Virus record (IMG/VR): IMGVR_UViG_2802429248_000008
Coordinates: 1-26,841 of that record
Source of the DNA: a virus
Taxonomy: Duplodnaviria > Heunggongvirae > Uroviricota > Caudoviricetes
DNA length: 26,841 nt
Direction: 5' to 3' (one strand)
Shown here: piece after piece, positions 757-11,829 of the stretch
Position numbering within the stretch: position 1 is the first letter of the stretch
How the letters are laid out: each line of letters begins with the position of its first letter
Translations under genes and position numbers: made by a program
Notes under the pieces: generated by a model
Database searches by the model: none
What the model was told of the DNA's origin: nothing
Seen by the model: only the letters and a program-made list of their open reading frames with translations

Positions 757-1155
757 TCAGATTCCCTCCCAAACTATATATCCTTTGTCTCTTGCCCAAC
801 AAACAACTGTGTGGGCTGTATATGTGGATGTGAAGCCGCAATAAGAACATGACACTTCATACCGAGTATTGTAGATGTTAATGGGCTCGTTCTCCTTGTG
901 TATGGGAGTGACATATTCCCAATCATTCGAATCATCATAATCATCAAGCTCAGGGTCTGTGCCGTGAACAACCGTATGTGGAATAAACAAATCTGGGCGC
1001 CCACACGAGAGACAAGAGGTTCTGGCATCTCTATCTTTGAGGAATTGAATAAATAATTTGGGCGAAATCTGTTGCAGAACCTGCAAATGCCCACGTTCAT
1101 TATCATTAAGAGACCTGTCTGCATATGGAAAATCATCAAATTTAAGAGGCTTCAT
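757..1155 (-). CDS. Hypothetical zinc-ribbon-like protein, AT-rich cargo gene
   Basis: ORF track 757..1170 (minus). Preferred ATG at 1155-1153 (MKPLKF...) with GGAG about 9 nt upstream; overlaps the integrase stop by about 14 nt. Two CxxC pairs (CLSCG, CSYCG). Stop TGA is directly followed by the GTG of the next ORF. Confidence 0.5.
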   Translation of the reverse strand: MKPLKFDDFPYADRSLNDNERGHLQVLQQISPKLFIQFLKDRDARTSCLSCGRPDLFIPHTVVHGTDPELDDYDDSNDWEYVTPIHKENEPINIYNTRYEVSCSYCGFTSTYTAHTVVCWARDKGYIVWEGI

Positions 1156-2134
1156 ATAAGGCATCTCCAAGGGGATTAAATCTCACCGCATCCTGCAAGT
1201 AATCCGGCGCAAGATGGGCATAAATCATCGTTGTCTGAATCTTTGCGTGCCCCAGAATTTTCTGGAGCGTCAGAATATTGCCGCCGTTCATCATGAAATG
1301 ACTGGCGAAGGTGTGGCGCAGCGCATGAACAGCCTGGCCGTCGGGAACATCAGATGCGACCGTTTTGATGACATCGCGAACCAATGGATAATCCAGCGTC
1401 GGAAACACCAGTTTCCCGCCCCGTATTTTGATCTTTTCAAACAGGCTTTCAGAAATAGGAACGGTACGGTTTTTGCTGTTCTTCGTTTTTGAAAAAGTGA
1501 TTCGACAATGAAGAACACGGCGCTGCTCCAGTGCCGCTACCTCGCCCCATCGCGCCCCGGTCGACAGAAGGATTTCGACAGCCAGCCGTTCATCGGGATT
1601 TTCAGCCAGTGCATCCAGCAACTGAACACATTCAGACTTACTCAGATATCCCATTTCGCGCTCGTTAACCTTCATTCCTTTAAGGCCTTGAACGGGGTTA
1701 TCGTTAAGAAAATGGCCGGATGAGATGAGTGCGGTAAACATCGCGCTTAACGCCCCAATCTCTCGATTTATGGTGCTGGGCTGTATCCCCTGCTCTATCC
1801 TGGACACACGTAGCTCGGTGAGCATCGTTGTATTAAGTTTATGCACGCACGGGTCATCCATTGCCTCACTCAAGCGCAGCAATTTAAGGCGCGTGTTATG
1901 CCCTGACTTCATTAGCTGGCCGTGGTATTTCCACCACAAGTCAATAAGCACTGACAGCGGACGGCGATCAATGGAGTTTCCTTTCCACTCATTGTTATGC
2001 TGTTGCGCCAGCACCCACCGCTCATATAAAACTGCATCCGATTTCGTTTTAAATTTTTTACGAATGCGTTTGCCTTTACGCCCCTCCGGGCGCATGTCAA
2101 GAAGATACCCTCCCGGAATTGATTTTATGCTCAT
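1142..2134 (-). CDS. int: Tyrosine site-specific integrase, P2 Int family
   Basis: ORF track 1142..2284; start set at ATG 2134-2132 (MSIKSIPGGYLLDMRPEGRKGKRIRKKF...), which resembles the P2 Int N-terminus as recalled. C-terminal catalytic box HALRHTFASHF ... IQTTMIYAHL. Sits downstream of and co-directional with the repressor. Confidence 0.9.
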   Translation of the reverse strand: MSIKSIPGGYLLDMRPEGRKGKRIRKKFKTKSDAVLYERWVLAQQHNNEWKGNSIDRRPLSVLIDLWWKYHGQLMKSGHNTRLKLLRLSEAMDDPCVHKLNTTMLTELRVSRIEQGIQPSTINREIGALSAMFTALISSGHFLNDNPVQGLKGMKVNEREMGYLSKSECVQLLDALAENPDERLAVEILLSTGARWGEVAALEQRRVLHCRITFSKTKNSKNRTVPISESLFEKIKIRGGKLVFPTLDYPLVRDVIKTVASDVPDGQAVHALRHTFASHFMMNGGNILTLQKILGHAKIQTTMIYAHLAPDYLQDAVRFNPLGDALYEAS

Positions 2135-2183
2135 TCGTGAAACCCCAGCGTTACAAGACCACCATGCCCCCAGCGCTCCATGA

Positions 2184-2492
2184 TTAGCCGGGCTGTGTGC
2201 CAGTCTTGCGGGGTTTTTGAGAAGGCGATGTGCTTTTTGGCCCATCAGGGGAGAGAGACGGACTGATCTGCCCAGCAGCCTCATTTGTTTTTCCCGTCAT
2301 AAGCCAATTCATGTACTTAAAAAAGCGAGGGTGATTAACAATCTTGATAAGCACTTCGCCCCCTATGTTTTCAATCCGCCCCGTTTCATAACGACGCAAA
2401 GTGCCGATAGGCACATCAATCAGGCCGCAAAATTCTTCGCGCGTTAAATCCTCTGATTCACGAATCACTCTAATTTTTTCACCGATAAGCAT
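2184..2492 (-). CDS. C: Immunity repressor, XRE/Cro-C1-type HTH (P2 C-like)
   Basis: ORF track 2184..2528; ATG at 2492-2490 (MLIGEKIRVIRESEDLTREEFCGLIDVPIGTLRRYETG). HTH near the N-terminus, about 100 aa, divergent from a cox-like gene and just upstream of int, as in P2. Confidence 0.75.
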   Translation of the reverse strand: MLIGEKIRVIRESEDLTREEFCGLIDVPIGTLRRYETGRIENIGGEVLIKIVNHPRFFKYMNWLMTGKTNEAAGQISPSLSPDGPKSTSPSQKPRKTGTQPG

Positions 2493-2496
2493 TGAC

Positions 2497-2550
2497 AGTG
2501 TTCCTATAAGTACACTAAGCTTGCGCACAAGGTGTACTTATAAGTACACC
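2497..2550. promoter_or_regulatory. Immunity-switch operator: 20-bp perfect palindrome plus a degenerate upstream copy
   Basis: ggtgtacttataagtacacc at 2531-2550 is its own reverse complement. agtgttcctataagtacact at 2497-2516 matches it at 16 of 20 positions, centre-to-centre about 34 bp. A TTGACA hexamer sits at 2492-2497. Located between the divergent C and cox-like starts. Confidence 0.6.
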
Positions 2551-4844: not shown

Positions 4845-5140
4845 GCACCATCAACCACCAGGAACTACGCGAACTGGCGACTGACCTGCAACGAATGGCA
4901 ACGCATCAAAAATTACTGGCGTTTCGCGCAATGCTCTCGCCATCTTCCGTGCTGGCACTGCTGGATGAGCTGGAGCACGCCAGAACCATGGCTCCAGCCA
5001 TTCGCCTGACGCTCCATCATGAAATCGCTGATTTCTGCGCACCACTGGGTTCGCCTGGTGAACCAGAAACGCCGGAAGCAATGCAACGAGAGCTACTGCA
5101 ACGCATCGACAAGGTTTTTGATTTTTTCCTTAACCAGTAA
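4841..5140 (+). CDS. Hypothetical protein
   Basis: 99-aa ORF, ATGA-coupled to the upstream gene. Confidence 0.5.
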   Translation: MSTINHQELRELATDLQRMATHQKLLAFRAMLSPSSVLALLDELEHARTMAPAIRLTLHHEIADFCAPLGSPGEPETPEAMQRELLQRIDKVFDFFLNQ

Positions 5141-5151
5141 AGGACCGCGAT

Positions 5152-5355
5152 ATGAACAAAAAGACCTGGTTTCGCGCATACATGTGGGCGCTGGTATGCG
5201 TCCTCGTTTCTCTCATTCTGTATGCAGGACTACTCCCCCGAATGATTTCATCAGACAGCTCCTTCCTGGTATTGCTGGGCATTTTCATTGCCATGCTGTA
5301 CCCGGCAGGCGTTGTTCGCCTTTTCAGTAAGTACATCAAGGAAATCAAACAATGA
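5152..5355 (+). CDS. Small two-TM membrane protein, partner of the SPFH protein
   Basis: 67 aa with two hydrophobic segments (WALVCVLVSLILYAGLL and FLVLLGIFIAMLYPAGVV); AAAGGA RBS; stop overlaps the SPFH gene start (ATGA). Confidence 0.55.
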   Translation: MNKKTWFRAYMWALVCVLVSLILYAGLLPRMISSDSSFLVLLGIFIAMLYPAGVVRLFSKYIKEIKQ

Positions 5356-6182
5356 AGAAATTCAAACTCTTTCAGATTCTCCCGCTTTTTGCCGCCATCC
5401 TGCTGGTTGGCTGCGATCGCGTTGAGCCAGGTAATGTGGGCATCAAAGTCAACAAGCTGGGCGACGACAAAGGCGTTGGCGAAGTGGTTGGCGTTGGCCG
5501 CTACTGGACTGGCTGGAATACAGAGGTTTACATCTTCCCGACCTTCAAACAAATGAAGACCTACGATGAGCCGTTCAGCTTCCAGATGAGTGACGGCACA
5601 ACCATCGGCTATCACATCGGCGTGGCTTACAAGGTTGATCCATCCAAAGTTACCACAGTGTTTCAGACCTACCGCAAAGGCGTGGATGACATTACCGACA
5701 CTGACCTGCGCCAGAAGATCGCCGATGCACTCAACCGACTGGCCAGCAAAATGACCACCGATAAGTTTATCGACGGCGGTAAGTCTGAACTGCTGGATTC
5801 AGCACTTAAAGATATTCAGGAAGAGATGACCCCCATCGGCATTCAGGTCATGAGCCTCTCTTATGTCGGCAAACCGGAATATCCGCCAACCGTTATCGAC
5901 AGCATTAACGCCAAAGTCACGGCAAACCAGAAAACCCTGCAACGCGAACAGGAAGTCAAGCAACGCGAAGCTGAAGCCAACATGCTGCGCGCAGAAGCTG
6001 CCGGACAGGCCGATGCCATTCGCACAAAAGCCCAGGCTGAAGCCGACGCCATTCGTTTACGCGGCGAAGCTCTGCGCCAGAATCCCGGCGTCATGGAGCT
6101 GGAAGCGATTAACAAATGGAACGGCACGCTGCCGCAATACATGACCAGTAACACCGCTGTTCCGTTCGTTCCCGTGAAGTAA
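5352..6182 (+). CDS. SPFH/band-7 (prohibitin/HflKC-like) domain lipoprotein
   Basis: 276 aa; lipoprotein signal with lipobox LLVGC; band-7-like core followed by an Ala/Glu/Gln/Arg-rich coiled-coil (EQEVKQREAEANMLRAEAAGQADAIRTKAQAEADAIRLRGEALRQNP), the usual SPFH architecture. Confidence 0.8.
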   Translation: MKKFKLFQILPLFAAILLVGCDRVEPGNVGIKVNKLGDDKGVGEVVGVGRYWTGWNTEVYIFPTFKQMKTYDEPFSFQMSDGTTIGYHIGVAYKVDPSKVTTVFQTYRKGVDDITDTDLRQKIADALNRLASKMTTDKFIDGGKSELLDSALKDIQEEMTPIGIQVMSLSYVGKPEYPPTVIDSINAKVTANQKTLQREQEVKQREAEANMLRAEAAGQADAIRTKAQAEADAIRLRGEALRQNPGVMELEAINKWNGTLPQYMTSNTAVPFVPVK

Positions 6183-6237
6183 TGACACCCGGCCAGTGAA
6201 ACCGCTGGCCAATAAACAAAAAGCCAGAGGACAGAAC

Positions 6238-6384
6238 ATGCACAAAGCCTTTGAACGATGGATGCGTCAGCGTTACGGCAACCGCTACGACCTGACAAGA
6301 GATGCCGATGGCTACTACTGCCGCGAAATTGTGAAACGAATGTTTGAAGTGTGGTGCCACCACCGCGGTTTATACGCCGTGTAA
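6238..6384 (+). CDS. Hypothetical small protein (48 aa)
   Basis: ATG 6238 with GAGGA 7 nt upstream; the track's GTG 6196 start lies inside the hairpin ggccag...ctggcc at 6191-6210. Confidence 0.4.
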   Translation: MHKAFERWMRQRYGNRYDLTRDADGYYCREIVKRMFEVWCHHRGLYAV

Positions 6385-6411
6385 AGCACCACCGCTAACG
6401 AGGTAAAAAAT

Positions 6412-6972
6412 ATGCATAACTTCAAACTCAAACCAATGGGTACACCTGGTGTGGCTCCGGCACATGTAAAACCATGGACACAACAGGAAGATGAAATGCT
6501 TATCTCGCTTTATCCGGAGTGCAACACGCGCCAGATAACCGAACAAATTCAACGAACCCATGACGCAGTTATGCACCGACTTAGTTTTTTACGTGATCGT
6601 GGATTGATTGGTCGCAAGAAAAAGACTCTGAGTGCAAAGGAGATCGCCTTTCTCATTGAAAACCGCCACACCAGAACGGCGCAGGAACTGGCCGCCGAGG
6701 TGGGATGCACCCATCGCACCGTACAAGCGCACCTGAATAAACGTGGTTATAGCCTGCGAAAATGCGGAGAACTCCACCACCTGACCAGATACAGCGATCA
6801 CCTGGTGGAACTGGTGACTGAACTACGTGATGAGCAGCACATGACGTTCGCCATGATAGCAAAACACATTAATCACACACTGCAAATAAAAGTCACCACT
6901 CGTACAGCACGTTTTCTTTACGGTCGCCGCACCGCCGCCGACGCCGTGCTGTACGAGCTATTACCAAACTGA
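6412..6972 (+). CDS. Putative DNA-binding protein with three HTH-like repeats
   Basis: 186 aa, ATG 6412 preceded by GAGGT. Three segments of similar pattern (WTQQEDEMLISLYPECNTRQITEQIQRTHDAV; SAKEIAFLIENRHTRTAQELAAEVGCTHRTVQAHL; HLVELVTELRDEQHMTFAMIAKHINHTL). Function inferred from pattern only. Confidence 0.5.
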   Translation: MHNFKLKPMGTPGVAPAHVKPWTQQEDEMLISLYPECNTRQITEQIQRTHDAVMHRLSFLRDRGLIGRKKKTLSAKEIAFLIENRHTRTAQELAAEVGCTHRTVQAHLNKRGYSLRKCGELHHLTRYSDHLVELVTELRDEQHMTFAMIAKHINHTLQIKVTTRTARFLYGRRTAADAVLYELLPN

Positions 6973-7086
6973 GTAATCATCATGCACACACAAAAAAACC
7001 GCTTGCCATGCCGCAATCAGTCAGGTTACATTTCCGCTGCACCTCATAAAACGGGTGCCGGGATTCTCAACCTGCTGACAAACGAA

Positions 7087-7118
7087 GCGCACAACCGCGC
7101 CAGCGGTTTTTTTGTGCG
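7087..7118 (+). terminator. Terminator-like hairpin with a 7-T run
   Basis: Inner stem ccgc/gcgg (7095-7106) followed by TTTTTTT (7107-7113); outer arms cgcacaa/ttgtgcg (7088-7094 and 7112-7118). About 115 bp past the 6412-6972 gene. Confidence 0.45.
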
Positions 7119-7168
7119 TACTGTATTGCCACGTCTTTTTCGCATCAGAATTATGGTGGGGCGTACGG

Positions 7169-7200
7169 GGCCGACTTCGGTCGGGCCGGTTTCTTCGTTT
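7169..7200 (+). terminator. Second terminator-like hairpin with UUCG loop and U-rich tail
   Basis: ggccgac-ttcg-gtcgggcc at 7169-7187, then ggtttcttcgttt. Preceded by TTGCCA (7126-7131), a 17-nt spacer and AATTAT (7149-7154), a plausible promoter. Confidence 0.45.
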
Positions 7201-7295
7201 GCCGGTGTTGAGAACCCCGTACGTCTCGCCACCCCGAGATTCTCAACTCTGGTTGGTGAGTATCCAAAAACTCACAAACGAAGAGGCCAAACACC

Positions 7296-7526
7296 ATGGC
7301 AAACCGCAAACAGCACCGCGCTATCGCGGAGCGTCGTCACATCCAGACTGAAATCAACCGCAGACTTTTCCGCGCATCACGCGTCGCGCAGATCATGCAC
7401 ATCAATATGCTGCATGAGCGCAGCCACGCGCTATCGAACATCTATTCAGCCTCTATTTTCAGCTATCTGGCGGATGATCTGCGCGAGCTTCAGCGGCTCA
7501 TCCTGCAGCAAAACAAACTCCATTAA
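7296..7526 (+). CDS. Hypothetical protein, first gene after the noncoding junction
   Basis: 76-aa ORF, ATG 7296 with AAGAGG 9 nt upstream. Confidence 0.45.
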   Translation: MANRKQHRAIAERRHIQTEINRRLFRASRVAQIMHINMLHERSHALSNIYSASIFSYLADDLRELQRLILQQNKLH

Positions 7527-7598
7527 TTCTGGTTCCGGGCCTTTCCTGCACCTTGCGGCGGGAGGCCTTCGCACATCTGTAACAAGAGGATTGCCGCA

Positions 7599-7964
7599 AT
7601 GATTCTCGCCAACGACTTTCTTGAATACCTGCTCAACACAGAGCGCGATCTTGCCGTTCGCGTGCGTGACCGTTATGACATGTACCTGAAATCCCTGCCT
7701 GTACCGCAGCTCGCTGACGGAAAGATTGTTATTGATGGCCGCTACATGATTGACAGCCACGAGGGAAATTACAGGCTTTACCGCATTGAAGGCGGCACCC
7801 CGTCCGTTATTGGCATTTACCAGCGCCCATCCTCTGCGATCGTCGATGTGATTGCAGACAGCATCCGCATCACACATCGCTATGCCGACACAGAAGACAC
7901 CGTGCTGGAAATTCAGCGGCTGGCTGCCGTTTGCCGTGACACCCTGAACGGTATGACGAAGTAA
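7599..7964 (+). CDS. Hypothetical protein directly upstream of replication gene A
   Basis: 121-aa ORF, ATG 7599 with AAGAGGA RBS. Confidence 0.5.
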   Translation: MILANDFLEYLLNTERDLAVRVRDRYDMYLKSLPVPQLADGKIVIDGRYMIDSHEGNYRLYRIEGGTPSVIGIYQRPSSAIVDVIADSIRITHRYADTEDTVLEIQRLAAVCRDTLNGMTK

Positions 7965-7970
7965 ATCAGT

Positions 7971-10793
7971 ATGACGACAGAGTACATCAGGGACTGGCAA
8001 CAACCGCGCCACGCAGTAGGGCGTGAAGGAACGGGGATCCCCGCACCTGAATCCGCGCTTTCCTCCTGGCTGGATGCCTACCGGGCAGAGAACGAGCGCC
8101 GCCAGGAAAAGGCTGATGCGGTGTTCTCCGCCACGCCACTGGGCAACCTGATTAATAAAAGCCTGGACGCACAGGAAAAACAGGACAAAACCATCACTCT
8201 GGCAGGAGAAGCCAGAAGACAGGCACGCGGCGCGGTGGATGAAGCCATGGCCTCGCTGCGCCTGCTGCCGTCCTATCTGCGCGATCCGCTTATTCGCCAC
8301 CTCTCCTTCCTGCGCAAAAAACAGGAAGCCGATCGCCGGAAAGGCAAAAAGAGCTGGCAGGCAGAACGCTATGCACGCGGAACCCTGCGCAAGATATTCG
8401 ATCGCATTAACCGTGCCGACAGTCGCTGGCTGACACCGGGTTATCGCTCCCTTGCCGGACGCGAACGCCTGGACGATTTGCTTTACCTGCCGCAGCTCAA
8501 CAAACACCAGATACAGACGCTGGCCACCATGACGGCGGCGATGTTCAGCAGCACCTTCGAAAAACTCTGCGATGGCTTTGGCGCGACTGATGGTGAGCTG
8601 ACCATGGAGGTGGCACTGAAGGCGTATCAGATGCTGGCCCGCATGGCGTTACACCTGCACACCGTGCCGCCGCATTACGAAGCGCTGACAACAGACAAAG
8701 ACCGGAGGAACGAACCGGACACGGAGCTGCTGCCGGGCGCAATCCTTCGTCTGACCTGTGCGGAATGGTGGAAACGCAAACTGTGGCTGTTACGTTGCGA
8801 GTGGCGGGAAGAACAACTCCGTGCCGCCTGTCTGGTTTCCAGAAAAACATCGCCCTATCTGAGCCAGGACGCGTTAAGCGAGTTTCGCGCACAGCGCGAG
8901 AAAACACGCGATTTTCTGAAAAGTTTCATGCTGGAAAACGAAGACGGGTTCACGATTGATCTCGAGACAGTGTATTACGCGGGAGTAAGTAACCCGGTTC
9001 ACCGTAAGGCAGAAATGATGGCCACCATGAAGGGGCTGGAACTTCTGGCCGAAGCCCGTGGCGACAAAGCGGTGTTTCTGACTGTCACCTGCCCGTCAAA
9101 ATACCACGCCACAACAGAGAACGGTCATCCGAACCCCAGATGGAACGGGGCCACCATGCGCGACTCCAGCGATTACCTAGTTAACACGTTTTTTGCGGCG
9201 GTCCGCAAAAAACTGAACCGCGACGGTCTTCGCTGGTATGGCATCCGCACGGTGGAGCCTCACCATGACGGCACTGTGCACTGGCATATGATGGTCTTTG
9301 CACATCCGGAAGAAATCGACAGCATCGTGGCCATCACCCGCGATATTGCCATTCAGGAAGACCGCCACGAGCTGGGCAATGATATTACTCCGCGCTTTAA
9401 GGTGGAGTATGTCGACGGCTCAAAAGGCACACCGACCAGCTATATCGCCACCTACATCGGAAAAAACCTGGACAGCCGCGCCGTGGATGGCATCGACCCG
9501 AAAACGGGCAAGCCACGCGTTGACCACGAAACCGGAAAATCAATGGCCGAGAGCGTGGAGCGCGCCATCGGCTGGGCGCGCCTTCACCGCGTCCGCCAGT
9601 TCCAGTTCTTTGGCATCCCCTCCCGTCAGGTGTGGCGTGAACTGCGCCGCCTTGCCAGCCAGATGGCACGCAACCCGGAAGGCCCGCAACGGCTGAAGGA
9701 TGACGCAATGGATGCGGTACTCGCTGCCGCTGATGCCGGGTGTTTTGCCTCCTACATTGAAAAACAGGGTGGCGTACTTGTTCCACGCAAGGACTACCTG
9801 ATTCGCACCGCCTACGACCTCGCAGATGAGCTGAACGATTACGGCGAACAGGGCGTACAGATTTACGGGATCTGGTCACCACTCATCGGGGAATCCTCCC
9901 GTGTGTGCACGCACCCGGATAACTGGAAGCTGGTAAGACGTAAACCGGAACAGGAAGGTAGCGCCCACGAAAATGGTTTTGACCTTCAGGGCGGCCCTGC
10001 CGCCCCTTGGACCCGTGGCAATAACTGTCCCCGTGTACAGGAAACGGACAACAACGGGACAGAACAGCCGGAAGAACGGCCAGCACCGTGGCCGCAGCTT
10101 CCTGACGGCATTGAAGTGAACGAATGGATGCGCTCACTGAAACGGCACGAACGCCGGGCGCTGATGCGTTCGCTTCGTGACAAACAGGCAAAAAACAGCA
10201 GTGATGAAATGCAGAGCTGGACACAGAGCCGCAAACAGCAGCGGCCTTTGCCTGATAACCACGAATTACTCGCTAGAGAATGGCGGGAGTCTGCTGAATC
10301 TCTCGGCCTGCATATCGGTGAACAACAAATGCAGCACCTGTTACGGGGCGGCAGTCTGTACGTTGACGGCAGCATCATTGCACCGCAGGGATTTGAAATT
10401 GTACGCAAACCGGATACCCGCCCGGACAGCCGAATCACGCAGCTCTGGCAGCGCCTGAGCCGTAATCACGGTGTAAGCAGCACGGAGATCCGCCATAACC
10501 CGGTCGCCAGCTATCTGGCACAGCTGGGGGCATCAGACCCTGAAGCCGCCGCACGCCTGGCATCCACACTTCAGCAGGACCAGAACACCATGAAAACACC
10601 CGTTACCGTGCTTTCTGACATGCTGCGCGCCATCCGCGACGCAGAGCACGCACAGAGAATCAGTGAAACCACTGAACGCGCCCACCGCAAAGCAGACCTG
10701 CTGCGGGGTGGCCTGACCAGTGGAAACAAAAAACAGACAGAAACGGGACTCACGAATCCCGTAAATGAGCAAAAAACGCGCAGCGATATATGA
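7971..10793 (+). CDS. A: Rolling-circle replication initiator (P2 gpA family, HUH endonuclease), 940 aa with a long C-terminal extension
   Basis: HUH motif HHDGTVHWHMMVFAH and paired active-site tyrosines in SYIATYIGKN, characteristic of P2 A/phiX174 gpA-type initiators. About 290 C-terminal residues are low-complexity and Gln/Arg/Glu-rich. Confidence 0.85.
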   Translation: MTTEYIRDWQQPRHAVGREGTGIPAPESALSSWLDAYRAENERRQEKADAVFSATPLGNLINKSLDAQEKQDKTITLAGEARRQARGAVDEAMASLRLLPSYLRDPLIRHLSFLRKKQEADRRKGKKSWQAERYARGTLRKIFDRINRADSRWLTPGYRSLAGRERLDDLLYLPQLNKHQIQTLATMTAAMFSSTFEKLCDGFGATDGELTMEVALKAYQMLARMALHLHTVPPHYEALTTDKDRRNEPDTELLPGAILRLTCAEWWKRKLWLLRCEWREEQLRAACLVSRKTSPYLSQDALSEFRAQREKTRDFLKSFMLENEDGFTIDLETVYYAGVSNPVHRKAEMMATMKGLELLAEARGDKAVFLTVTCPSKYHATTENGHPNPRWNGATMRDSSDYLVNTFFAAVRKKLNRDGLRWYGIRTVEPHHDGTVHWHMMVFAHPEEIDSIVAITRDIAIQEDRHELGNDITPRFKVEYVDGSKGTPTSYIATYIGKNLDSRAVDGIDPKTGKPRVDHETGKSMAESVERAIGWARLHRVRQFQFFGIPSRQVWRELRRLASQMARNPEGPQRLKDDAMDAVLAAADAGCFASYIEKQGGVLVPRKDYLIRTAYDLADELNDYGEQGVQIYGIWSPLIGESSRVCTHPDNWKLVRRKPEQEGSAHENGFDLQGGPAAPWTRGNNCPRVQETDNNGTEQPEERPAPWPQLPDGIEVNEWMRSLKRHERRALMRSLRDKQAKNSSDEMQSWTQSRKQQRPLPDNHELLAREWRESAESLGLHIGEQQMQHLLRGGSLYVDGSIIAPQGFEIVRKPDTRPDSRITQLWQRLSRNHGVSSTEIRHNPVASYLAQLGASDPEAAARLASTLQQDQNTMKTPVTVLSDMLRAIRDAEHAQRISETTERAHRKADLLRGGLTSGNKKQTETGLTNPVNEQKTRSDI

Positions 10794-10838
10794 AGCGCGC
10801 ACAAAACAGGCAAAAACGGGATTTCAGAATCCCGTAAA
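10741..10838. promoter_or_regulatory. Two 25-bp imperfect dyad repeats flanking the parM upstream region (candidate parC centromere/operator, or A-associated site)
   Basis: aaacgggactcacgaatcccgtaaa (10741-10765, inside the 3' end of A) and aaacgggatttcagaatcccgtaaa (10814-10838). Each has inverted acggga/tcccgt arms; the second forms a perfect 8-bp stem (acgggatt/aatcccgt). AT-rich stretch and RBS follow before parM. Confidence 0.5.
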
Positions 10839-10869
10839 CGATTAATTAATCAACATAAGGAAAAGCGAC

Positions 10870-11829
10870 ATGAAAATTTGTATCGACGACGGCTCCACCA
10901 ACATCAAGCTGGCATGGACTGAGAACAGCGAACGCCGCAACGCCATCAGCCCGAACAGCTTCAAGTCGGAATGGTCTGCGCCGTTCGGTGGCTCGCAGCC
11001 TGCGAACTACATGCTTGATGGCGTGCGCTATGGTTTTGATCCGGTCAGCGATCGCTTTGTCCAGACGACCGACACGCAATACCAGTACAGCGATGTGAAT
11101 GTAATCGCCATTCACCACGCGCTGGTCAAATCAGGCATCACACCACAGGAGGTGGATGTGGTTGTCACCCTGCCACTGAGCGAGTATTTCGACACAAACG
11201 CACAGCCGGACATGGCCAACATCAACCGCAAAAAAGCGAACGTTATGCGCCCGGTGGAGTACCAGAACGGTGAGGCATTCACTATCCGTAACGTGCGGGT
11301 TATGCCTGAATCCATTCCGGCTGGCTTTAAAGCACTGGCTGACATGAGTCCGTTTGAATCCCTGCTGATTGTGGATTTAGGCGGAACCACGCTGGATGTG
11401 GCAAAGGTTCAGGGACAACTGGCAGGTATCAGCCAGGTGTTTTGCGATCCACACGTAGGCGTTTCCCTGATGGCCGATGCCGTACTGTCGGTGATGGCCA
11501 CTAACGGTATGCGTACCAGTCACCACATCGCCAATACCATTATCGAACATCGCCATGATGAAGCCTGGCTGCGCCAGCACATCCACAATGACGCGCATTA
11601 CAACAGCCTGATGGCGGTTATTCGTGAAAAGGAAGAAACACTGAAACAACGCGTGATCCGCGCGCTGGCGGGTTTTTCGGGTTACGGGCGGGTGATGGTT
11701 GTCGGTGGAGGGGCGGAGATTGTGGCACCCGCTATCCGCGAAGCCTGCGGAGTTAATGCGACTTTCATCGCGGACGGGGTGCCACAGTTTGCTCTGGTTA
11801 ATGGGCTGTACGCAATGGACAAGGAGTAA
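10870..11829 (+). CDS. parM: ParM/StbA-family actin-like partition ATPase
   Basis: 319 aa. N-terminal MKICIDDGSTNIKLAW, plus HHAL, NRKKAN, VMPESIPAG, LLIVDLGGTTLD, VGGGAEI and LVNGLY, co-linear with plasmid R1 ParM as I recall it. Confidence 0.88.
   Translation: MKICIDDGSTNIKLAWTENSERRNAISPNSFKSEWSAPFGGSQPANYMLDGVRYGFDPVSDRFVQTTDTQYQYSDVNVIAIHHALVKSGITPQEVDVVVTLPLSEYFDTNAQPDMANINRKKANVMRPVEYQNGEAFTIRNVRVMPESIPAGFKALADMSPFESLLIVDLGGTTLDVAKVQGQLAGISQVFCDPHVGVSLMADAVLSVMATNGMRTSHHIANTIIEHRHDEAWLRQHIHNDAHYNSLMAVIREKEETLKQRVIRALAGFSGYGRVMVVGGGAEIVAPAIREACGVNATFIADGVPQFALVNGLYAMDKE

Follow-up and report, generated by a model that had tools for sequence, protein, structure and literature searches.

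RNA-based immunity was worked out in the bacteriophages P1/P7 and P4 in the 1990s. In the immI region of P1/P7 the P1c4/P2c4 promoters are followed by a1 b1, c4, a2 b2, icd and ant1/2. The P1 model has two segments of the C4 RNA, a' and b', pairing with both a1b1 and a2b2 (PMC2864571, supplement 1). Where PMC4825925 turns to P4, the CI RNA is described as acting with seqA and seqC; the P4 timm element (8365-8209) lies directly downstream of seqC (PMC3177188). IsrK, an RNA of the Salmonella prophage Gifsy-1, is a seqA homologue, and its Hfq binding and its trans-activation of the read-through mRNA have been shown in Salmonella (PMC4825925). The RNA families, their wide spread in prophages and the mechanism have all long been known (PMC2864571, PMC4825925). 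Here, a 26,841-nucleotide (nt) stretch of viral DNA, IMG/VR record IMGVR_UViG_2802429248_000008 (positions 1 to 26,841; hereafter the window), is examined for a junction of about 320 nt between a multi-helix-turn-helix (multi-HTH) gene and the gene for a derepression protein. An earlier sequence-only reading had described this junction as noncoding, with two terminator-like hairpins, a candidate promoter and repeats serving as an operator. The analysis presented indicates that it is very probably an RNA-immunity module, homologous to the series PLE - seqA - CI RNA - seqC of P4 and to a1b1 - c4 - a2b2 of P1/P7 immI.

Only two Rfam matches above the curated thresholds were found in the whole window and both lie inside the junction, where they cover their models completely. 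The RNA genes and their parts are as follows.

7039-7113, plus strand: isrK (RF01394) leader RNA, 62.0 bits against a gathering score of 50, model positions 1-77 of 77
7039-7058 and 7059-7074, plus strand: the two hairpins of the isrK-type RNA, the second with site a1 in its loop
Stem 7093-7108 and U-run 7107-7113, plus strand: intrinsic terminator of the isrK-type RNA, from a terminator scan
7149-7236, plus strand: C4 antisense RNA (RF01695) gene, 79.2 bits against a gathering score of 45, model positions 1-87 of 87
7154-7170 with 7215-7231, plus strand: 17-bp closing stem of the C4-type RNA, enclosing two hairpins
7171-7184, plus strand: CCGAC-UUCG-GUCGG hairpin, helix P2 of the C4-type RNA and the first inner hairpin
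7185-7206, plus strand: second inner hairpin of the C4-type RNA, with site b' as its loop

The isrK-type match is taken to be the equivalent of P4 seqA and of the P1 a1b1 leader, and it ends in the 7-T hairpin at 7087-7118 (GCGCACAACCGCGCCAGCGGTTTTTTTGTGCG) that the sequence-only reading had picked out, for which the scan gave the stem and T-run listed above. The C4-type match is likewise assigned as the P4 CI/P1 C4 RNA, with the UUCG hairpin as an internal arm. Of the two terminators originally proposed the first (7093-7113) therefore stands and the second does not: the UUCG hairpin (7169-7200) is nested in the 17-bp C4 stem, and what had looked like its U-rich tail is the loop of the next hairpin in the same RNA. 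Folding in silico, one of the checks suggested at the outset, agreed with a structured RNA; the 88 nt of 7149-7236 fold at -48.6 kcal/mol (z = -4.67; 0/200 shuffles as good) and their minimum free energy (MFE) structure is identical to the Rfam C4 structure.

The two RNAs and the start of the downstream gene are connected by six short complementary segments, named after the P1 nomenclature of the annotated P1 record.

7064-7071, plus strand: a1 (UUCUCAAC), in the loop of the second isrK hairpin, complementary to a'
7079-7087, plus strand: b1 (CAAACGAAG), complementary to b'
7192-7201, plus strand: b' (UCUUCGUUUG), the C4-type hairpin loop
7207-7214, plus strand: a' (GUUGAGAA), in the single-stranded C4-type junction
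7240-7286, plus strand: downstream target region (P4 seqC / P1 a2-b2), made up of a2, a local hairpin and b2
7240-7247, plus strand: a2 (UUCUCAAC), complementary to a'
Core 7256-7275, plus strand: local hairpin between a2 and b2, from the fold
7275-7284, plus strand: b2 (CAAACGAAGA), complementary to b', with two G-U pairs extending to 7286

All strings quoted in the sequence-only reading were confirmed in place by direct check, among them the inverted repeat, formed by GTTGAGAA (7207-7214) and its exact reverse complement TTCTCAAC (7240-7247), and the 10-mer direct repeat GATTCTCAAC at 7062-7071 and 7238-7247. The 8-mer TTCTCAAC has three copies in the window, at 7064 (+), 7207 (-) and 7240 (+), all of them in the junction (expected 0.87; 6/100 shuffles reach 3). 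A second triplet had been missed: CAAACGAAG occurs at 7079 (+), 7193 (-) and 7275 (+) with no other copy in the window (expected 0.33; 1/100 shuffles reach 3), and in both triplets it is the middle copy that is inverted. Together with the two G-U pairs, b2 covers the Shine-Dalgarno (SD) sequence GAGG (7283-7286) of the gene starting at 7296, and the duplex that includes the SD reaches -27.5 kcal/mol in the window. The local hairpin, traced over 7247-7285, partly sequesters the SD even without antisense RNA.

Comparison with relatives carries the argument from complementarity to pairing. Starting from relatives of the protein encoded downstream, IMG/VR and encoding-contig look-ups yielded 86 loci that share the leader (a genome-contig scan alone gave 6), and their 41 distinct leaders were aligned. 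Mean identity is 89%, and nearly all columns of high entropy belong to the six a/b blocks. Within the C4-type RNA pairing amounts to 96.1% over the internal helices, where 5 pairs are compensatory, to 99.9% in the closing stem and to 100% in the two inner hairpins. Between the C4-type RNA and the downstream sites 94.6% of cells are paired and 10/18 pairs have changed on both sides, a level that none of 500 shuffles attained and that slid controls (37-50%) did not approach; for the upstream sites against C4 the figures are 96.3% and 11/17, again with 0/500 shuffles as high and with slid controls at 27-56%. In some relatives a G-U wobble replaces a Watson-Crick pair (UA:24, UG:13 at one pair), which argues for pairing at the level of RNA and against a DNA operator. 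The repeats that had been read as an operator are thus RNA-RNA sites, one copy of which is always the reverse complement within C4 and all three of which change together, G-U wobbles included.

The variable blocks sort into 11 b (loop-paired) and 5 a (junction-paired) types, seen in 17 combinations; a and b reassort. Mean cognate duplex energies are -26.4 kcal/mol upstream and -28.0 kcal/mol downstream, against about -15.5 +/- 4.3 for non-cognate pairs, and the cognate target ranks best for 15/16 C4 variants upstream and 16/16 downstream. Such co-varying a/b blocks, as read from the alignment, are the signature of heteroimmune specificity classes of the kind that separates P1 from P7. An E. 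coli prophage in GCA_900448625.1 (locus L093, 3747-4222 and 4576-5050) carries the whole module of isrK, C4 and derepression gene twice in tandem; the two copies differ in a/b (UUUCCACC/CAAACGAAG and UUCGCAGC/CUAGCAAAG), and the second derepression gene is uncalled.

Two promoter-like sequences lie in the junction.

7003-7032, plus strand: PLE-like promoter, -35 TTGCCA (7003-7008), N18, -10 TACATT (7027-7032), 9/12 in a consensus scan
7126-7154, plus strand: candidate promoter of the sequence-only reading, TTGCCA-N17-AATTAT, 9/12 consensus positions

The first is retained in the 41 leaders at its -35 (40/41), its -10 (41/41) and its spacer length (41/41), with a spacer sequence that varies in more distant prophages, and its position matches both P4 PLE and the annotated P1 promoter P1c4. 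It would be a constitutive promoter with a predicted start near 7039. The isrK-type terminator downstream of it is invariant or nearly so across the same relatives; an anti-terminator was considered and rejected, as the alternative fold of 7039-7113 still ends in the stem and U-run. The second candidate did not hold up. Its -35 is TTGCCA in only 24/41 relatives and TCGCCA in 15/41, and its -10 is the conserved leader AATTAT that precedes GG directly 5' of the mature C4 end in 41/41; because the -10 is C4 5' leader, a start about 7 nt past 7154 would fall inside the closing stem. The candidate is thus probably not a functional promoter for the C4 RNA. The 5' end of that RNA is instead probably cut by RNase P between AAUUAU and GG, since the layout is identical to that of P1 C4 and the leader and 3' ACC tail are invariant. 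The features compatible with RNase P (U at -1, G+1 paired with C, a helix of 16-17 bp and the 3' ACC tail) are invariant or nearly so in relatives and are laid out as in the annotated P1 C4 RNA. The mature C4-type RNA is predicted to span about 79 nt (7155-7233).

Directly behind the target region begins the block of genes that the module would regulate.

7296-7526, plus strand: derepression protein gene, 76 amino acids (aa), the first regulated gene; Pfam PF25738, 31.2 bits against a cut-off of 27
7599-7964, plus strand: orf121, the second gene of the regulated block
7971-10793, plus strand: replication endonuclease gpA; Pfam Phage_GPA, 432.7 bits

The 76-aa protein (PHROG 3688) shares 34% identity with P4 epsilon over 50 aa (BLASTP, E = 1e-8), and it is accordingly classed by sequence as an epsilon homologue and putative anti-repressor. 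Every related P2-like prophage examined has the order derepression gene, small open reading frame (ORF), gpA, and more divergent E. coli prophages show the same order behind an uncalled gap of about 320 nt, all with isrK and C4. The three genes are presumably co-transcribed, given their spacing and the analogy with P4. Taken with the Rfam scores above gathering and the covariation, this architecture, which is that of the P4 immunity/alpha region, argues for attenuator-type control, and in that respect the sequence-only reading was right to propose short structured RNAs or an attenuator ahead of a block ending in gene A.

In the P4 record the CI and seqA regions match both Rfam models (60.8 bits for seqA on the isrK model) and are followed by epsilon, orf151, orf106 and alpha. 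The order promoter - seqA - CI - seqC - epsilon - replication gene is common to P4 and the window, as are the pairing of the two exposed segments of the RNA with one upstream and one downstream site pair, a downstream b site that runs into the SD of the first gene, an epsilon homologue, a replication gene closing the block and an ORF open across the RNA in the same register. The pairing sequences themselves are not the same: P4 has GUGAGAA and UUCACAGG in seqA, UUCUCAC and CCUGUGAA in the CI RNA and, in seqC, the order GUGAGAA - hairpin - UUCACAGGAGG - AUG of kil. Whereas P4 is a satellite, the element in the window is a complete phage of the P2 family that has genes for capsid, terminase and baseplate; its first regulated gene is itself epsilon-like with no kil-like gene between, its replication gene is the rolling-circle gpA and not the primase-helicase alpha, and its terminator-to-RNA spacer is 35 nt as against about 107 nt. 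A wider module shared with P4 was considered and rejected (orf121 against orf151, E = 0.18), only the RNA module and epsilon being shared.

In the P1 record C4 and c4-a1b1 matches coincide with the annotated c4, a1/b1 and a2/b2 features. The C4 RNA is homologous, its 5' part, AAUUAU followed by GGUGGGGCGU, is nearly identical and its annotated extent is the homologous GGUGGGG...GCCACC; the junction carries a' and the loop of the hairpin b', a2 comes immediately behind C4, b2 borders on GAGGCC and the start codon of icd, and the target is an anti-repressor operon. Specificity differences between P1 and P7 give heteroimmunity (PMC12197685). P1 differs in that its first gene is icd, its anti-repressor Ant is unrelated to epsilon, its operon is without a replication gene, its leader matches c4-a1b1 rather than isrK and a stop in b' closes the frame that crosses C4. 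The c4-a1b1 motif (RF03163) likewise has two hairpins with a1 in the second loop and b1 immediately 3' (PMC2864571, supplement 1); the isrK match covers the same two hairpins and the layout at 7039-7087 is exactly c4-a1b1-like, but it is the isrK model, which adds the terminator, that matches the window. The isrK - orf45 (STnc1160) - anrP region of Gifsy-1 also has an RNA of the isrK family, transcribed from a promoter of its own and ending in a leaky terminator; downstream of it a stable RNA arises by processing, and an ORF is translated through that stretch and coupled to the next gene (PMC4825925). Its output is an anti-repressor too, and mid-IsrK is predicted to pair in cis with the downstream RNA. 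Gifsy-1, however, is a lambdoid phage; what has been demonstrated there is that the short RNA activates in trans (PMC4825925), and the output is AnrP and then the antiterminator AntQ, as against an epsilon-like protein and gpA. An isrK and C4 pair, 70-75% identical, is also present in Shiga-toxin-converting lambdoid phages, namely PA2 (locus L092, 2500-2687) and 147 other phage records, where it precedes other cargo (a 215-aa hypothetical gene, kil, recT).

On these grounds the following course of events is proposed. The promoter at 7003-7032 would fire constitutively from near 7039 and most transcripts would end at the intrinsic terminator, giving an isrK/seqA-type RNA of about 75 nt (7039-7113). 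Read-through transcripts would contain the C4/CI-type RNA, which would be excised as a stable RNA of about 79 nt. Its loop b' and junction a' would then pair with b2 and a2 (7240-7286) and cover the ribosome-binding site of the derepression gene; the untranslated transcript would be expected to undergo Rho-dependent termination, leaving orf121 and gpA unexpressed. The same a'/b' may also pair with a1/b1, which would be either a second target on the nascent transcript, as in P4, or a competitor freeing a2/b2, as proposed for P1 and found in Gifsy-1. The a and b sequences, which differ between otherwise near-identical prophages, would set immunity specificity.

A long frame runs through the whole of this region.

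6982-7602, plus strand: eta-like overlapping frame of 206 codons, crossing both RNA genes and, in another frame, the whole derepression gene

It ends in an ATGA on the orf121 start codon. The sequence-only reading had found no convincing ORF here, which remains apt for the product, Arg/Ser-rich and unlike a protein, but not for the frame, which is open in 39-40/41 leaders and in 9/9 more divergent prophages, with a stop always 3-13 nt past the start codon of the next gene in relatives. Stop triplets in the leader number 123, 58 and 1 over the three frames, and the variable a/b blocks supply 30 distinct stop-containing contexts, 0 of them in the 206-codon frame. The eta frame of P4 crosses the CI RNA without a stop in the same register, and similarity between the two products is confined to 23 C4-encoded residues. 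The eta/kil frame of P4 reportedly lies over cI, an open frame and an RNA function coexisting there, as Forti and colleagues are said to have described in 1999. Within the derepression gene the evidence for selection on the overlapping frame is weak, frame +1 staying open in 11-14% of random trials of synonymous recoding; the stop-free variable blocks and the conserved end point provide the stronger evidence. Whether the frame is translated on transcripts entering from the upstream early promoter is a question on which the odds appear even, and the case for it rests on likeness to P4 eta and to Gifsy-1 orf45 (PMC4825925). If it is, ribosomes would thereby pass the switch and reach orf121 and gpA. 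A weak Pfam Phage_ASH match of the ORF (20.9 bits against a cut-off of 26) falls on residues 16-87, the part encoded by the isrK and C4 stretch, and that family may for this reason largely reflect translated RNA genes.

Family membership, the structures, complementarity, covariation, the overlap of b2 with the SD, gene order and the epsilon homology of the first gene are established, and several points weigh against the immunity module as set out above. Promoter activity, termination at 7113, C4-type processing and downstream repression are all assigned by homology; polarity through Rho and the biological function of the derepression protein are likewise presumed. From 7230 to 7430, downstream of the ATG, C makes up 30-38% and G 18-24%, a C-over-G bias that is compatible with a Rho entry site and suggestive, but not diagnostic. 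The replication gene is a P2-type gpA and not P4 alpha, and orf121 is not detectably similar to orf151, so that the analogy with the P4 alpha operon is architectural only. The Rfam c4-a1b1 model, which matches P1 (51.0 bits) and two P4-like metagenome contigs, gave no match in 6800-7500 even at E <= 10, and the leader is classed as isrK for that reason. Lastly, in the MFE structure of the unprocessed 272-nt leader (7039-7310; -107.1 kcal/mol, z = -4.46) a1/b1 are paired with a'/b' in cis at the expense of the C4 fold.

This cis pairing resembles the inactive 'structure A' of Gifsy-1 and leads to a different emphasis, in which the main control is positive: the short RNA, acting in trans on read-through transcripts or on the C4-type RNA, would open an inactive structure and switch on translation of the anti-repressor, making the module more an induction trigger than an immunity repressor. 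The isrK match of 62 bits is in keeping with this, as is the full complementarity of a1 and b1 of the short RNA to a'/b', through which the C4-type RNA could be titrated; translation of anrP in Gifsy-1 rose more than 100-fold with IsrK acting in trans (PMC4825925), and a competitor role for a1/b1 has been proposed for P1 (PMC2864571, supplement 1). In P4, however, seqA is a target needed for termination and no activator, at least as PMC4825925 cites the P4 work, and a2/b2 covary with a'/b' as tightly as a1/b1 do while b2 covers the SD, which points to direct repression by the C4-type RNA. Positive control of the Gifsy-1 kind as the main mode is accordingly judged rather unlikely; it is compatible with an RNA-immunity module and concerns which RNA is dominant.

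The other two explanations deny the module altogether. That the junction holds two independent terminators with a promoter between them, the repeats being operators for a phage DNA-binding regulator, draws on the presence of TTGCCA-N17-AATTAT and of both hairpins and on the multi-HTH gene immediately upstream, but the second hairpin is inside the 17-bp stem of a full-length C4 match, the candidate -10 is conserved C4 leader with a -35 that is not conserved, and the repeats covary as base-pairing partners down to the G-U wobbles. Moreover, the closest E. coli prophages are without the multi-HTH gene and keep the whole leader, and this explanation is very improbable. Slightly less credible still is that the region is simply protein-coding, an 'ash family protein' or 'hypothetical protein' on which the RNA matches are incidental. 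It has in its favour a RefSeq 'ash family protein' pseudogene call over the region, the sub-threshold Phage_ASH match and a frame that stays open in relatives. Constraint on a protein alone does not predict compensatory changes that keep helices and long-range pairings, however, the ORF resembles the P4 eta frame in its C4-encoded residues only, and the P88 coding sequence over the region is on the opposite strand, making the annotations mutually inconsistent.

As for the surroundings of the RNA-immunity module, the window as a whole is a complete prophage of the P2 family, P88 / Xuanwuvirus type, whose early operon is on the plus strand; it has genes for portal, terminase, GPO scaffold, P2-type capsid and baseplate J as well.

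1142-2528, minus strand: integrase and C-like repressor, prophage context
2184-2528, minus strand: C repressor gene, prophage context
6412-6972, plus strand: multi-HTH gene, just upstream of the RNA module

The stop codon of the multi-HTH gene is in frame with the eta-like ORF, 9 nt before the ATG of that ORF. The gene has no counterpart in the closest E. coli prophages (where only 87% of 5000-11000 is covered and the leader is retained entire) and is therefore regarded as a mosaic insertion directly 5' of the RNA module; it is present, as a 184-aa gene, in Citrobacter phage PhiSM and other E. coli P2-like prophages. Behind gpA, at 10870-11829 (+), lies a ParM-type actin-like plasmid segregation gene, and in P88 a partition-protein gene adjoins; such a gene, together with a P4-like immunity module, suggests a possible plasmid-prophage state. 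The leader was found at 14 places on plasmid records of the E. coli genome collection, and a diverged leader occurs on non-mobilizable Klebsiella and Enterobacter plasmids of about 50 kb.

The leader is present in 1184/5426 complete E. coli genomes and also in the active phages P88 and PhiSM. None of the records examined treats the module as RNA: it appears as a 'hypothetical protein', as an 'ash family protein' pseudogene or as a call on the wrong strand, or it carries no annotation. The RefSeq 'ash family protein' pseudogene lies over the RNA genes at 2237-2503 of locus L002, and the P88 hypothetical protein SF19_gp13 lies over them on the minus strand (locus L001, 5033-5221 (-), equivalent to 7044-7232 (-) of the window). 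Contig NZ_JBQPOM010000071.1, labelled Vagococcus sp. (Firmicutes), contains this enterobacterial P2-like region with a derepression gene 87% identical and the same a/b type as the window; the assembly is likely contaminated or mislabelled. A literature search found no paper describing an RNA-immunity module in P88-like/Xuanwuvirus phages. The P88-like instance is new, widespread and unannotated; the principle is not new and the families are already in Rfam.

Recognition of the module gives P2-like prophages a testable layer of RNA immunity ahead of the replication gene and links the immunity/epsilon module of the P4 satellite to its helper phage family. It also provides a natural set of orthogonal antisense-RNA/target pairs, with cognate duplexes at about -27 kcal/mol and non-cognate ones at about -15 kcal/mol. 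A bolder and more tentative possibility is that P2-family prophages carry a second, purely RNA-based immunity layer whose specificity depends on two short loop/target blocks that reassort independently, and that the 320 nt are in addition dual-coded through the eta-like frame. Ribosomes would then follow transcripts that start at the C-repressed early promoter through the switch, letting these escape it, whereas transcripts of the internal promoter would remain under RNA control. If so, the RNA module, not the C repressor alone, would decide superinfection immunity, possibly with cross-talk with P4-like satellites of the same RNA family.

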